64,000 bases of DNA from an uncultured Acidobacteriaceae bacterium (GTDB lineage Bacteria > Acidobacteriota > Terriglobia > Terriglobales > Acidobacteriaceae): positions 986,941 through 1,050,940 of the forward strand of contig CAWHOT010000002.1 in NCBI GenBank assembly GCA_963831085.1. Direction: 5' to 3'. Position 1 is the first letter of the stretch; every line of letters starts with the position of its first letter. The position numbers were made by a program, and so were the translations under genes. The notes beneath the pieces are model-generated. The model did not search any database. It saw only the letters and a list, made by a program, of their open reading frames with translations, and had not been told where the DNA came from. Below are positions 22,028-42,093 of the stretch, piece by piece.

Positions 22028-22282
22028 AGAAAGGTAAAGGCTGTGACATTGGCTATGCTCTAGCCGTCAGCTCCTGCGAGGGAGCCAACAGCGTGGAGGC
22101 ATGCGCCGTCACAGCCCTTGATGCGATCACCACTTTCGCGGTCCCAAACCCCAACTACTCCTCGCGAGAGCCGTCGGTTTTTTCAGGTTTGGCTGCTCTT
22201 CGGGTTGCCCCGCCAAGCTGATCACTCAGCCTACTTCGGACTGGCAAAAGTTTAATTTAGCCAACCCTTTCAGCCGTCGACG
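22028..22282 (-). ncRNA. Candidate structured non-coding RNA (copy A), class not recognised
   Basis: Conserved promoter upstream. Hairpins GCTGA-GTGA-TCAGC (22217..22230), GGG-GCAA-CCC (22202..22210), CCGC-GAAA-GTGG (22130..22141) and CTCT-CGCGA-GGAG. A 78-nt multi-branch domain is closed by the 9-bp stem GGCTGTGAC/GTCACAGCC (22039..22116), followed by TTTACCTTTCT. A 1-nt indel relative to copy B breaks every reading frame. Confidence 0.5.
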
Positions 22283-22288
22283 GGAGCA

Positions 22289-22317
22289 ACCTTAGAGATT
22301 TACTCAAAGATTGTCAA
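22289..22317 (-). promoter_or_regulatory. Sigma-70-type promoter for the candidate ncRNA (copy A)
   Basis: The minus strand reads TTGACA-17 nt-TAAGGT and is identical in copy B (41360..41388). Confidence 0.5.
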
Positions 22318-22499
22318 TGCCCTTTTTCAGTGCAATCGGCCTGCTGCGATAAATCCAAGCCCTAAAGCGCAACCCATTGAATCATTAACGCTTAATGAAT
22401 GGGAGATTAAATTCATTCCTTTTTTCCACAGCAGCATCCACAAGTCCACGAAGGCATGGGCAACTACTGAGGAGTATGCGGGGGAACCTGATAGGCATC

Positions 22500-22528
22500 T
22501 TGACGCCGGGAAATTGGTGACGTATGGT
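22500..22528 (+). promoter_or_regulatory. Possible promoter of the RNase H-like gene (copy A)
   Basis: TTGACG-17 nt-TATGGT. Copy B keeps TTGACG-17 nt-CATGGT at the equivalent place. The ATG is only ~20 nt downstream and no SD is visible. Confidence 0.35.
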
Positions 22529-22549
22529 TTTCTCAAGCTCACCAACGCA

Positions 22550-22972
22550 ATGTCAGACCTCGTGGCTTACATCGATGGCGGCTCTCTCGGGAATCCCGGC
22601 CCGTCTGGTATTGGACTGGTAATCGACGGCTCCACTGACGGCACGATCAGAATCGCTAAATGGATCGGGCACCAGGACAATAATGTCGCCGAGTACATTG
22701 CTCTGCTGGAAGCGCTGCAATGTGCCCTGGGGCTTAAGGCCAAGACGCTTCACGTGTTTTCAGATTCCGAAGTAATGGTCAAGCAGATGAGTGGCGAGTA
22801 CAGCTGTCGCAGCCCGCGGCTTTATTCTCTGAACTGGATCTGTCGGAAATTGGCCCGGTCGCTCGCTTTCTCGATCTCCCACATTCCTCGTGAGAACAAC
22901 ACCGAAGCCAATAGCTTGGCCGGTTCGGCTGCCCGCCAGAGGCTTTGCTCCGATCAGTCTTACCTCTCTTAA
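22550..22972 (+). CDS. RNase H-like protein (type 1 / RVT_3-like), 140 aa, paralog A
   Basis: DGGSLGNPGPSGIG..NNVAEY.ALLEAL..FSDSE motifs (Asp, Glu, Asp of the RNase H fold). The start is set at the ATG conserved with copy B, because the listed N-terminal extensions of the two copies are unrelated. Confidence 0.8.
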   Translation: MSDLVAYIDGGSLGNPGPSGIGLVIDGSTDGTIRIAKWIGHQDNNVAEYIALLEALQCALGLKAKTLHVFSDSEVMVKQMSGEYSCRSPRLYSLNWICRKLARSLAFSISHIPRENNTEANSLAGSAARQRLCSDQSYLS

Positions 22973-23005
22973 CTCACTAAGAACCTAAACAGCTTGCAGC
23001 TTATC

Positions 23006-23035
23006 TAAGGTCTAACTCTCTAAGGTCTAACTCTC
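23006..23035. repeat. Perfect tandem duplication 2 x 15 nt (TAAGGTCTAACTCTC) spanning the stop codon of the 9-heme cytochrome gene
   Basis: Read directly: 23006..23020 equals 23021..23035. Confidence 0.9.
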
Positions 23036-39886: not shown

Positions 39887-39937
39887 CGGAGAAGGGGTGG
39901 CGCAAACTGTGGCCAGTGGGGTTCGGGAATCCGCAGT

Positions 39938-40930
39938 TTAGCGGCTCGAGGTTTTCTGCATCCAGGCCCACGCACTTGAGACGATGTCGGCGAGACTGCG
40001 CTGGGCGGTCCATCCCAGCACTCTTTGAGCCTTCGACGGATCAGCCACCAGGACTGGAGGATCGCCCGGCCGCCGTGGTCCAATCTTTCGCCGGACCGGG
40101 CGTCCAGTGGCGTTTTCCGCCGCCTGAATGACTTCGAGAACGGAATGTCCCCGGCCGGTTCCTAGATTGATGGCCAGCGATTCGCCCATTTTGCCTCCGT
40201 CTCTTTCGCCGTTTCTTTCCAGGTATTGCAACGCTCGGACGTGCGCATCGGCGAGATCGCTGACATGAATGTAGTCGCGAACGCAGGTGCCATCCGGAGT
40301 GGGATAGTCGGAACCGTAAATTTGCAACTCTCGTCCGTTCTCGGTGGAGGCGGCGAGGGCCAGAGGAATCAGGTGAGTTTCCGGATCGTGGAGCTCGCCG
40401 GTCTCGCCACTTTCGTCGGCTCCGGCGGCGTTAAAGTAGCGCAGCCTCACCGCGTGCAGTCCGTAGGCGCGGTCGTAAGCTTCGAGTGCATTTTCGAAAA
40501 AAAGCTTGGACGCGCCATAGGGATTCACCGGCTCGCGCGGCGTCTGCTCAGCGATCGGAATTCGCTCGGGGAGACCGTACACGGCACAGGTCGAAGAGAA
40601 CACGAACCGGCGGATACCGGCGTCCAGCGCGGAGTTCAGCAGGCTGAGTGCAGCGACAACGTTGTTGCGGAAATACTTGCGCGGGTTCTCGACCGACTCT
40701 CCCACATAAGCGTGAGCGGCAAAGTGCATGACCGCGTCCACGCGCGCGAGCACCGGACGGAGCTTCGCGTCGTCGGCGATGTCGCCCTCCACCAGCTCGA
40801 AGCCTTGCGCCAGGCGGCGAAAGCCGGTGGAAAGATTGTCGTAGATCACGACCTCATAACCGGAACGCCGAAGTGCGCGCGCCGCATGACTGCCAATGTA
40901 GCCTGCTCCACCCAACACCAGGATCGCCAC
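39938..40930 (-). CDS. galE: UDP-glucose 4-epimerase
   Basis: VLGGAGYIGSH NAD-binding motif, YGASK catalytic motif, 330 aa, GTG start. Confidence 0.9.
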   Translation of the reverse strand: MAILVLGGAGYIGSHAARALRRSGYEVVIYDNLSTGFRRLAQGFELVEGDIADDAKLRPVLARVDAVMHFAAHAYVGESVENPRKYFRNNVVAALSLLNSALDAGIRRFVFSSTCAVYGLPERIPIAEQTPREPVNPYGASKLFFENALEAYDRAYGLHAVRLRYFNAAGADESGETGELHDPETHLIPLALAASTENGRELQIYGSDYPTPDGTCVRDYIHVSDLADAHVRALQYLERNGERDGGKMGESLAINLGTGRGHSVLEVIQAAENATGRPVRRKIGPRRPGDPPVLVADPSKAQRVLGWTAQRSLADIVSSAWAWMQKTSSR

Positions 40931-41097
40931 CAGAAAACCTCACGACGCAACGCTTGACGACCGAACGATTTATGACACGATTGACACTCGCCGCTCTCGC
41001 AGTTGTTCGAGAGCTTGGCAGAAAAGCTACCCTCTGCCCATTATGATCGGGAAAAAGGGTTTCCGGGAGGCCGGATTTGCGGGCAGTACGAAGGCTG

Positions 41098-41353
41098 GAA
41101 AAAAGGTAAAGGCTGTGACATTGGTTATGCTCTAGCCATGAGCTCCTGCGAGGGAGCCAACAGCGTGGAGGCATGCACCGTCACAGCCTTCGATGCGATC
41201 ACCGCTTTCGCGGTCCCAAACCCCAACTACTCCTCGCAGAGCCGTCGGTTTTTTCAGGTCTGGCTGCTCTTCGGGTTGCCCCGCCGAGCTAATCACTCAG
41301 CCTACTTCGGACTGGCAAAAGTTTAATTTAGCCAACCCTTTCAGCCGTCGACG
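41098..41353 (-). ncRNA. Candidate structured non-coding RNA (copy B)
   Basis: Same elements as copy A. Differences are GTGA hairpin GCTGA/TTAGC (G-U instead of G-C), GAAA hairpin CCGC/GCGG (G-C instead of G-U) and a GCGA tetraloop where A has CGCGA. The closing stem lies at 41111..41188 and is followed by TTTACCTTTTTT. Confidence 0.5.
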
Positions 41354-41359
41354 GGAGCA

Positions 41360-41388
41360 ACCTTAGAGATTTACTCAAAGATTGTCAA
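41360..41388 (-). promoter_or_regulatory. Sigma-70-type promoter for the candidate ncRNA (copy B)
   Basis: TTGACA-17 nt-TAAGGT, identical to copy A. Confidence 0.5.
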
Positions 41389-41618
41389 TGCCCTTTTTTG
41401 GTGCAATTGTGCCGCCGCGATGTCGCAAGACCCAGACATGCAACCCATTGAATCATTGCCAGTTGATGAATGGGAGATTAAATTCTTCCCCTTTTTCCAC
41501 AGAAACATTCACAGGTCGGAAATCGCGAACGGACGGAAAGAGCTGGCGTGGGAACCAGACAAACATCTTGACGTCGGAAAATTCATCAGGCATGGTTGAT
41601 ACGAGCTCATCGGTAGAA

Positions 41619-42041
41619 ATGGCAGATCTCGTGGCCCACGTCGACGGCGGCTCTTTCGGAAACCCCGGCCCATCTGGTATTGGCGTGGTGATCGACGGCT
41701 CTGGCGACCGCACAATCAGAATCGCCAAATGGATCGGACACCAGGACAATAATGTCGCCGAGTACGTTGCTCTGCTCGAAGCGCTGCAATGTGCGCTGGG
41801 GCTTGAGGCCACGACGCTGCACGTGTTTTCAGATTCCGAAATAGTGGTCAAGCAGATGAGTGGCGAGTACAGCTGCCGCAGCCCGCGGCTTTATTCCCTG
41901 AATTGGATCTGCCGGAAGTTGGCCCGATCGCTCGATTTCTCTATCTCTCACGTCCCGCGTGAGAACAACGTTGAGGCCAACGATTTGGCCACCGCGGCCG
42001 CCCGCCAGAGGCTTTGCTCCGATCTGTCTTACCTCGCCTAA
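41619..42041 (+). CDS. RNase H-like protein (type 1 / RVT_3-like), 140 aa, paralog B
   Basis: 120 of 140 aa are identical to paralog A by hand count, with the same catalytic-motif pattern. The listed start 41382 is rejected because the extension is not conserved in copy A. Confidence 0.8.
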   Translation: MADLVAHVDGGSFGNPGPSGIGVVIDGSGDRTIRIAKWIGHQDNNVAEYVALLEALQCALGLEATTLHVFSDSEIVVKQMSGEYSCRSPRLYSLNWICRKLARSLDFSISHVPRENNVEANDLATAAARQRLCSDLSYLA

Positions 42042-42093
42042 GTCAATAAGAACCTGACAGCTTTAAGGGGACTACACCGTCATCACCGCTTCC

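Follow-up and report, generated by a model that had tools for sequence, protein, structure and literature searches.

A direct repeat in an Acidobacteriaceae genome read as two paralogous modules of a structured RNA gene and a variant RNase HI gene

The repeat pair and its predicted RNA gene

A 64-kb stretch of contig CAWHOT010000002.1 from an uncultured Acidobacteriaceae bacterium (the window, by which the whole stretch that was analysed is meant) contains a direct repeat with two copies, A at ~22030-22992 and B at 41102-42063, each of which carries an RNase HI-family gene (rnh) and a non-coding arm (Table 1). A first reading of the letters alone (the sequence-only reading) had reported such a repeat and taken it to bracket a mobilisable 18-kb redox island. 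Pairwise alignment of 21900-23100 with 40970-42170 and a self-scan of the window bear out the coordinates and the orientation that it gave, with one direct pair lying 19069-19072 apart from start to start as the sole long repeat of the window, in which the repeat scan found no inverted repeats, and neither a motif scan nor nhmmer found a third copy. The similarity begins abruptly at 22030/41102 and fades ~20 nt past the stop codons, at ~22992/42063. The identity between the copies differs by part, being 95.8% in the RNA gene (22029-22289), 71.9% in the spacer (22290-22549) and 86.5% at the nucleotide level in the rnh open reading frame (ORF), so that the arm is, as had been described, the better conserved part, and the longest identical run of 107 nt (22221-22327) lies inside the RNA gene. 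The flanks are unrelated, which Pfam confirms: copy A is flanked by PfkB and a multihaem cytochrome c, copy B by GalE and a PAS hybrid kinase. The ~20 nt that are kept after the rnh stop codon occupy 22973-22992 and 42042-42063 (TCA-TAAGAACCT).

Table 1. Window coordinates of the features of copies A and B and of the interval between them
Feature	Position	Strand	Basis
Copy A, predicted structured non-coding RNA gene, ~250 nt	22030..22282	-	bounded conservation, covariation
Copy A, RNA 3' domain, long irregular hairpin (GGCUGUGAC...GUCACAGCC)	22039..22116	-	consensus helices 10-12
Copy A, putative RNA promoter, TTGACA (22317-22312), 17-nt spacer, TAAGGT (22294-22289)	22289..22317	-	alignment, 76 loci
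Copy A, hairpin in divergent control region, CCCAUU...AAUGGG	22373..22403	.	moderate conservation
Copy A, direct-repeat motif, TTTTTTCCACA-GCAGCA-TCCACA	22420..22442	.	column conservation 88-90%
Copy A, putative rnh promoter, TTGACG, 17-nt spacer, TATGGT	22500..22528	+	promoter scan
Copy A, RNase HI-family gene, 140 aa, 'DED-N' variant	22550..22972	+	ATG 22550; Pfam
Intervening block, outside module	23027..40930	.	Pfam
Copy B, predicted structured non-coding RNA gene, paralog of copy A RNA	41102..41353	-	nhmmer 306.6 bits; row in alignments A2-A4
Copy B, putative RNA promoter, TTGACA (41388-41383), 17-nt spacer, TAAGGT (41365-41360)	41360..41388	-	motif positions, alignment
Copy B, direct-repeat motif, TTTTTCCACA-GAAACA-TTCACA	41491..41513	.	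alignment and motif positions
Copy B, putative rnh promoter, TTGACG, 17-nt spacer, CATGGT	41568..41596	+	alignment and motif positions; missed by scan
Copy B, RNase HI-family gene, 140 aa	41619..42041	+	ATG 41619; identical to public protein P0019

In an alignment of 76 sequences the columns are 97-100% conserved from a knife-edge boundary at 22030 to ~22295, where a patchy spacer begins. RNAalifold folds 71 sequences into a consensus of 76 base pairs in 12 helices, with compensatory double changes in 21 pairs, and a larger alignment of 126 sequences, which includes metagenomic ones, contains compensatory changes in 35 of the 76 pairs. The consensus fold pairs 98.8% of the cells, compared with 32-44% when the partners are slid by one to three columns, and no column shuffle out of 500 attains these values. 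The RNA is assigned to the minus strand because the pairs 16/64, 68/172, 120/143 and 129/135 are invariant G.U on that strand, which would be C.A mismatches on the plus strand, and because the minus strand folds at an alifold energy of -171, the plus strand at -128. The predicted 5' domain consists of a pair of hairpins, followed by a long-range helix that closes a three-way junction, and has GCAA, GCGA and GAAA tetraloops as well as an A-rich internal loop without variation (UGAAAAAA), which faces GUUGGGGUUUGG. The 3' hairpin (helices 10-12) shows compensatory changes from U-A to C-G and is directly followed in copy A by UUUACCUUU (22038-22030), the U-tract ending exactly where cross-species conservation stops; hairpin and U-tract together look like an intrinsic terminator. 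At the other end, the TTGAC of the promoter is invariant in 76 loci and positions 1, 2 and 6 (T, A, T) of the -10 element are 97-100% conserved, and in 136 of 163 RNA loci a TTGACA lies no more than 60 nt upstream. From these signals we infer a sigma-70-like promoter, a terminator and the ends of the transcript.

A 3-nt periodicity of substitutions was not found in the RNA, the variability by phase being 0.10/0.11/0.12, and a small ORF in the arm was rejected, since the substitutions have no third-position excess. Rfam 15, searched on both strands with the window and with divergent members, holds no family for the RNA at gathering score, and even at E<=10 or E<=1 no believable match appeared. 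Neither a tRNA nor a tmRNA was called by ARAGORN, and literature searches yielded no description of this RNA, nor of an rnh-associated non-coding RNA in Acidobacteria. With a fold supported by covariation and no match to Rfam, tRNA or tmRNA, the arm reads as a structured-RNA gene of a family that Rfam does not contain.

Some further observations concern RNA elements. Columns 114/159 of alignment A4 (window 22175 and the 22131 region) are mostly U/G in the RNAs that are linked to rnh and mostly C/A in those that are not, a switch of the isosteric U.G to C.A type at the base of helix 6. The window also contains a copy of the Acido-Lenti-1 RNA motif of Rfam at 5275-5320 on the minus strand (41.7 bits, above gathering score), and a distant locus of the module, L210, has two copies on the plus strand, at 1913-1959 just past the 3' end of the RNA and at 3686-3731 just after rnh, so that this motif looks like a dispersed intergenic hairpin element.

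The RNase HI-family protein and the control region

The copy A protein matches the Pfam domains RVT_3 (1.9e-19) and RNase_H (4.4e-12), and the two RNase H ORFs score 70-74 and 45-47 bits, respectively, with these models, in both cases above the gathering score; RVT_3 is, despite its name, an RNase H-type domain. The RNase H fold expected of an RNase HI is further indicated by homologues in the PDB, with 3U3G/4H8K, 3HST, 4E19 and 2EHG as the best matches and the 140-aa metagenomic RNase H of 3U3G/4H8K, the N-domain of Rv2228c and the RNase HI of Halobacterium and Sulfolobus as the closest solved structures. The catalytic tetrad is incomplete: D9, E48 and D72 are invariant, and the fourth Asp, which the solved homologues have at position 121, is replaced by N121 in 81 of 81 family members. 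According to an exhaustive search of representatives, Asn121 is present in every full-length relative of >=62% identity and in a few at 46-50%, whereas nearly all other homologues, at <=54% identity, keep Asp. A search seeded with a distant Asn-type protein (P0196, 50% identical) again returned Terriglobales proteins. The protein thus shares with the group of Sto-RNase HI, LC11-RNase H1, Halobacterium RNase HI and the Rv2228c N-domain a length of ~140 aa, the absence of the basic protrusion and the D-E-D of the tetrad, but differs from it by the Asn in place of the fourth Asp throughout the clade, by the adjoining RNA gene and by scores below the NCBIfam equivalogs, as RNase HI models of NCBIfam match only sub-threshold and below every equivalog cut-off. 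None of the PADLOC defence families matches the protein, and no reverse transcriptase domain, as a retron would have, was found in the module or its neighbours. A C-terminal tail (QRLCSD-SYL) is common to the A- and B-type proteins and missing from clades with proteins of 130-133 aa.

The RNA and rnh are transcribed divergently, ~270 nt apart. Across loci, the rnh promoter keeps TTGAC at 98-100% and positions A2 and T6 of its -10 element at 100%. Upstream of the RNA, TGTGGAAA or TTTCCACA is placed at two preferred positions in 66 of 163 loci, compared with 1 of 163 shuffled sequences, and recurs as a direct repeat of the form TTTCCACA-N6-TYCACA. This motif is probably a site for a transcription factor, and its recurrence suggests that the factor would be a dedicated one. 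In loci with the RNA only, the motif TTTTCCACA-N6-T(C/T)CACA is reversed and lies ~30-50 nt upstream of the -35 element of the RNA, adjoining a conserved TTGCAC. The hairpin of the control region has a compensatory variant, TCTATT...AATAGA, in L113, and on the plus strand of copy A a T-run comes after it. A distant Terriglobales clade carries between the RNA promoter and rnh a gene of 152-156 aa for an Xre-type helix-turn-helix (HTH) protein, on the strand of the RNA (minus strand 2415-2873 in L205/L206 and 2421-2891 in L210/L211), which is a candidate regulator of the module.

Age of the copies and occurrence in Terriglobales

The RNase H proteins of copies A and B are identical at 120 of 140 residues, their genes differ at 17, 7 and 33 sites in codon positions 1, 2 and 3, and 18 of 62 four-fold degenerate sites have changed (29%). 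This divergence and the low identity of the spacer indicate that the copies are old. The RNA has evolved about seven-fold more slowly than neutral sites (4% versus 28-29%). Judged by the spacer and rnh, copy A falls with L001-L004 and copy B with L006/L009. In the RNA, all pairs, orthologous and paralogous alike, show 87-98% identity. Since the orthologues of A and B are separable in the spacer and rnh and all RNA pairs are alike, the high identity of the RNA arm is attributable to purifying selection, not to recency or gene conversion. By these comparisons copies A and B are old paralogs, each with its own orthologues in other metagenome-assembled genomes (MAGs) of Terriglobales.

A scan of a genome collection with the RNase H protein gave >461 relatives, and the best 80 of these, which were examined, all belong to Terriglobales, as MAGs of Acidobacteriaceae or 'Ca. 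Sulfotelmatobacter'. Practically all of these 80 loci have the RNA upstream of rnh, at 79-93% nucleotide identity, and the exceptions are cut by contig ends, except L045, which has a fragment of the RNA only. Among the distant Asn-type rnh genes (~50% identical), the RNA is the direct divergent neighbour in L209 and is present in L205, L206, L210 and L211, with the Xre-type HTH gene between RNA and rnh, and in L207 and L208 the RNA side is replaced by other genes, including a Mu-transposase-like gene. The linkage of the RNA to rnh(Asn) is therefore old and outlives heavy divergence of the protein, because the RNA adjoins Asn-type rnh even at ~50% protein identity. A conserved third gene was not found around the module. 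In ~23 more distant loci the synteny is a single stable one (GAF/zinc-ribbon protein, adenosine deaminase and purine nucleoside phosphorylase), which is not informative.

The RNA itself was sought with the exact motif GAAAAAACCGAC-N13-19-GTTGGGGT, which matched only the two copies in the window, four short 'viral' contigs and >120 metagenome contigs. Thirty loci of the RNA without rnh keep the promoter and the upstream motifs, with a mean column conservation of 0.879 compared with 0.891 for the linked RNAs. No consistent protein partner was found in these rnh-less loci, the neighbours being mixed (HNH-like, TetR, AraC, YjbQ-like and others). A gene of ~120 aa for an HNH-endonuclease-like protein adjoins the RNA in L114, L152 and L190 and lies near it in L017, L018, L026, L037 and L182, and with two copies in L011; in three rnh-less loci it fills the divergent position that is usual for rnh. 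As its distances to the RNA are variable, its presence was judged coincidental and the gene was rejected as a partner.

Several loci deviate from the usual arrangement. In L039 the RNA gene is duplicated without rnh (9394-9855 and 17114-17575; 460 nt, 99.8% identical, 7.7 kb apart), L184 has tandem copies at 272-729, and L118 and L195 have two partial copies each, likewise without rnh; these local duplicates could be recent duplications or effects of assembly. In L015 an insertion sequence (IS) with a 465-aa DDE transposase and imperfect terminal inverted repeats of 38 nt is inserted between the RNA promoter region and rnh (8202-9781). The four 'viral' contigs with the RNA motif are short, and are fragments or look chimeric. 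In one from IMG/VR, L084 (381-616, 445-1209, minus strand), the middle and the 3' stem of the RNA are replaced and the RNA abuts a truncated terminase-like ORF near ParB and methylase genes; in another, L083 (also IMG/VR), a fragment of the RNA (4939-5074) lies at the end of a contig that otherwise codes for a polyprotein-like ORF of 1526 aa. These two may be chimeric, or they may point to an abundant transcript. Just past the 3' end of the RNA, L003 has a conserved segment of ~300 nt (745-1088; 80-92% identical) with a 74-aa ORF (772-996, minus strand), which also occurs in L001, L004, L005, L008, L010, L011, L014 and L015 and is absent from both copies in the window.

Readings of the repeat and significance

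The repeat is best explained as two paralogous modules of an RNA gene and rnh, and not as a mobile element or the boundary of an island, a reading to which we assign a probability of roughly 85%. Each copy is an entire two-gene module kept throughout Terriglobales (Acidobacteriota). Its first gene is that of a multi-helix RNA of ~250 nt on the minus strand, with a putative promoter of its own (TTGACA-17-TAAGGT) and a putative intrinsic terminator; its second, divergent gene codes for a type-1 RNase H of 140 aa that invariably has Asn in place of the fourth catalytic Asp. A and B stem from an old duplication of the module, and the appearance of a 95% identical arm beside an 86% identical gene arises because purifying selection holds the RNA far more tightly than neutral sites. 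The placement of the copies 19 kb apart around a redox/methyltransferase block is incidental.

Several points weigh against this picture. The ends of the RNA are taken from the sequence only (5' ~7 nt downstream of the -10 element, 3' at the U-tract), and the -10 hexamer of the RNA matches the consensus at only 3 of 6 positions, so that a simple promoter scan misses it. The number of copies refers to the 64-kb window, and the selection of metagenome loci by an exact motif inflates the apparent invariance of its two segments. The RNA also needs no adjacent rnh, since of 76 metagenome RNA loci with flanks long enough for a judgement 46 have a divergent rnh (67-93% aa identity) and 30 do not, and the adjacency could thus be historical or regulatory rather than physical. 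Furthermore, the A-type modules of other MAGs have unrelated flanks, which would still allow the module to have moved in some unrecognised way.

Whether the two genes of a module also work together is a separate step, for which we consider the odds about even. A functional coupling of the RNA and the Asn-variant RNase H is suggested because the RNA accompanies practically every rnh(Asn), even at deep divergence and where the flanks are fluid, because the clade-specific change in the active site coincides with the linkage, and because the control region is conserved. The protein might bind or process the RNA, the RNA might titrate the protein, or the pair might be co-induced from the shared control region, and extra copies of the RNA alone would supply more RNA. 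The competing view of this step only, that the RNA and rnh are merely neighbours through an accident of ancestry which duplication then spread, and the RNA is an independent trans-acting regulatory or housekeeping small RNA, seems to us the less probable one, but is kept alive by the ~40% of RNA copies that lack rnh and are equally conserved, and by the separate promoters of the two genes. Against it speak the adjacency, which outlasts both the divergence of rnh to ~50% identity and the turnover of the flanks, the active-site change specific to the clade of linked rnh genes, and the conservation of the control region itself. More doubtful still is the most far-reaching suggestion, that the ~250-nt RNA and the Asn-variant RNase HI form a dedicated ribonucleoprotein (RNP) or enzyme-substrate system new to biology; here the change from Asp to Asn would have retooled a minimal RNase H fold to bind its cognate RNA, or to be guided or titrated by it, and the RNA-only paralogs would act in trans. 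As a corollary of this suggestion, pairs of the RNA genes, which keep 90-97% identity across species, could be portable homology anchors for the exchange of the intervening genes between lineages.

That the copies are instead fairly recent segmental duplications or gene-converted repeats, and matter as recombination substrates bracketing an excisable 18-kb island, is improbable. The direct orientation and the 107-nt identical run in the RNA gene agree with it, as does the difference in the content of the interval between two genomes. In the window the interval comprises genes for a multihaem cytochrome c, cytochrome b, a Rieske protein, a cNMP-binding protein, a PAS histidine kinase, a sigma-54 response regulator, an FAD oxidoreductase, MttB, a B12-binding protein, an M28 peptidase, two TPR proteins and GalE. 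The sequence-only reading had listed these genes broadly as Pfam does, save that the M28 gene, which it took for a pseudogene, is an intact ORF of 765 aa (35782-38079, minus strand) with PA, Peptidase_M28 and TFR_dimer domains. The MAG contig CAVQTQ010000003.1 has an A-type module (L002) 21.8 kb upstream of a B-type module (L006) in the same orientation, and the genes between them, apart from TPR-TPR-GalE, differ from those of the window (a Sel1 protein, PfkB-like, TonB-dependent-like, thiolase, acyl-CoA synthetase and others). The B locus shares its synteny with L006 and L009 over a stretch that reaches from the TPR genes (38.2 kb) past 50 kb, and TPR-TPR-GalE is the only end of the 18-kb block that shares this synteny. 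The interval is thus plastic, since its genes differ between two genomes, but nothing shows that the repeats caused the plasticity, and the A...B arrangement itself is kept in another lineage. Four-fold sites that are 29% diverged, a spacer of 72% identity and separable A and B orthologues without concerted evolution are difficult to reconcile with recent or converted repeats. Likewise, Pfam found no integrase or transposase among the large ORFs of the block, both RNA copies are full length with no att-like partial duplicate of the RNA gene (nhmmer), and the GC content of the block (0.55-0.63) resembles that of the rest of the window, so that an integrase-type island is not apparent and the claim of a mobilisable island finds no support in what are ancient paralogs with an arm under purifying selection. 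Excision or amplification of the block by recombination between the copies, which had also been predicted, is physically possible in that the 107-nt run is long enough for an occasional RecA-dependent deletion or duplication, but it neither explains the repeat nor maintains it. Within the interval, 61 nt of the M28 ORF (37617-37677) are 92% identical to 12946-13006, which suggests a paralog near 13 kb, and the TPR genes (38269-38946 and 39033-39701) share a 68-nt direct repeat (38668-38735/39408-39475, 78% identity) as tandem paralogs, a pair also found in L006.

Slightly less probable again is a non-autonomous mobile or 'hitch-hiking' element, in which the RNA and rnh would be copied by a recombinase or a retro-mechanism encoded elsewhere. 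Two to three modules per genome in the clade of the window, the unrelated flanks of A-type modules, the RNA gene duplicated alone and nearby in L039, L184, L118 and L195, and the L084 copy that abuts a terminase-like gene would be in line with this. However, the earlier statement that the repeat is not an IS holds: terminal inverted repeats, target duplications and a transposase are absent, the edges of the repeat are gene ends with no duplicated flank at the ends of the alignment, no ORF other than that of RNase HI has a family match, and no match of the module was found in plasmid and phage collections. The copies are old and diverged rather than near-identical, a stable gene order is kept in ~23 loci and around the B locus, and the true IS in L015 looks quite different. 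Dispersed copies with transposase-associated ends, which the sequence-only reading had named as a reason to give up its view, were not seen either, the window holding one pair of 72-96% identity. It is highly improbable that the arm serves the rnh mRNA as a cis-regulatory leader or riboswitch on the plus strand, or codes for a small protein; the arm lies upstream of rnh, some of its frames have no stop codons and a terminator-like hairpin followed by a T-run is present on the plus strand at 41472-41489, but the conserved G.U pairs would become C.A on that strand, alifold favours the minus strand, rnh has a conserved promoter downstream of the arm, there are loci with the RNA and no rnh, and third-position excess is lacking. 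Finally, an assembly artefact, the other ground on which the first reading would have been withdrawn, is dismissed with near certainty, as nothing was found in support of it, the copies differ by 4-28% according to part and have unique flanks, the copy B protein is encoded on a public contig of 2.01 Mb and the paired arrangement recurs in an independent MAG.

Among known systems, orphan structured RNAs of bacteria that comparative genomics brought to light, such as the raiA motif, ROOL, GOLLD, OLE and HEARO, share with this RNA a multi-helix fold with GNRA loops, highly conserved nucleotides at the junctions and strong covariation, as well as an own promoter and terminator and a restricted phyletic range, but the present RNA is without a match in Rfam 15, is confined to Terriglobales as sampled, is multicopy and is tied to the gene of an RNase HI variant. 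In bacterial Rsr (Ro60)/Y-RNA loci a protein gene is flanked by one or more genes for structured non-coding RNAs that the protein binds, and extra RNA paralogs occur. The likeness is that the protein is (nearly) always found with the RNA and the RNA is sometimes found alone; the differences are the RNase H fold instead of the TROVE ring and the lack of a tRNA-like domain and of an Rfam Y-RNA match. Islands at tRNA or tmRNA genes resemble the locus in that direct repeats with an RNA gene bracket an accessory-looking block, but here there is no integrase, both repeats are complete and diverged gene pairs, where such islands have one gene and a short att duplicate, and the composition is not atypical. 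RNase H-dependent RNA systems include the maturation of the ColE1 RNA II primer and of the multicopy single-stranded DNA (msDNA) of retrons. By functional analogy, the present RNA may likewise be a structured RNA whose biology could need RNase H cleavage of an RNA:DNA hybrid, with the difference that no reverse transcriptase or plasmid context was found here. The RNA falls into no described family, and both the RNA family and its partnership with RNase H appear to be new.

A repeat that brackets an island would be an ordinary finding, but the RNA beneath it is less so. It is more tightly conserved than the adjoining protein gene (~4% versus ~29% neutral) and is present in several copies per genome in Terriglobales, which are among the most abundant lineages of soil and peat. 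Such strong constraint is typical of RNAs that act in RNPs or as catalysts, and not of base-pairing small RNAs. The locus also offers a simple handle for annotation in hundreds of MAGs, and a caution, in that uneven identity along a repeat can betray a hidden RNA gene instead of a recent duplication. For the RNA itself, the persistent pairing with a clade of RNase HI that lacks the canonical Asp provides a testable lead to its function.

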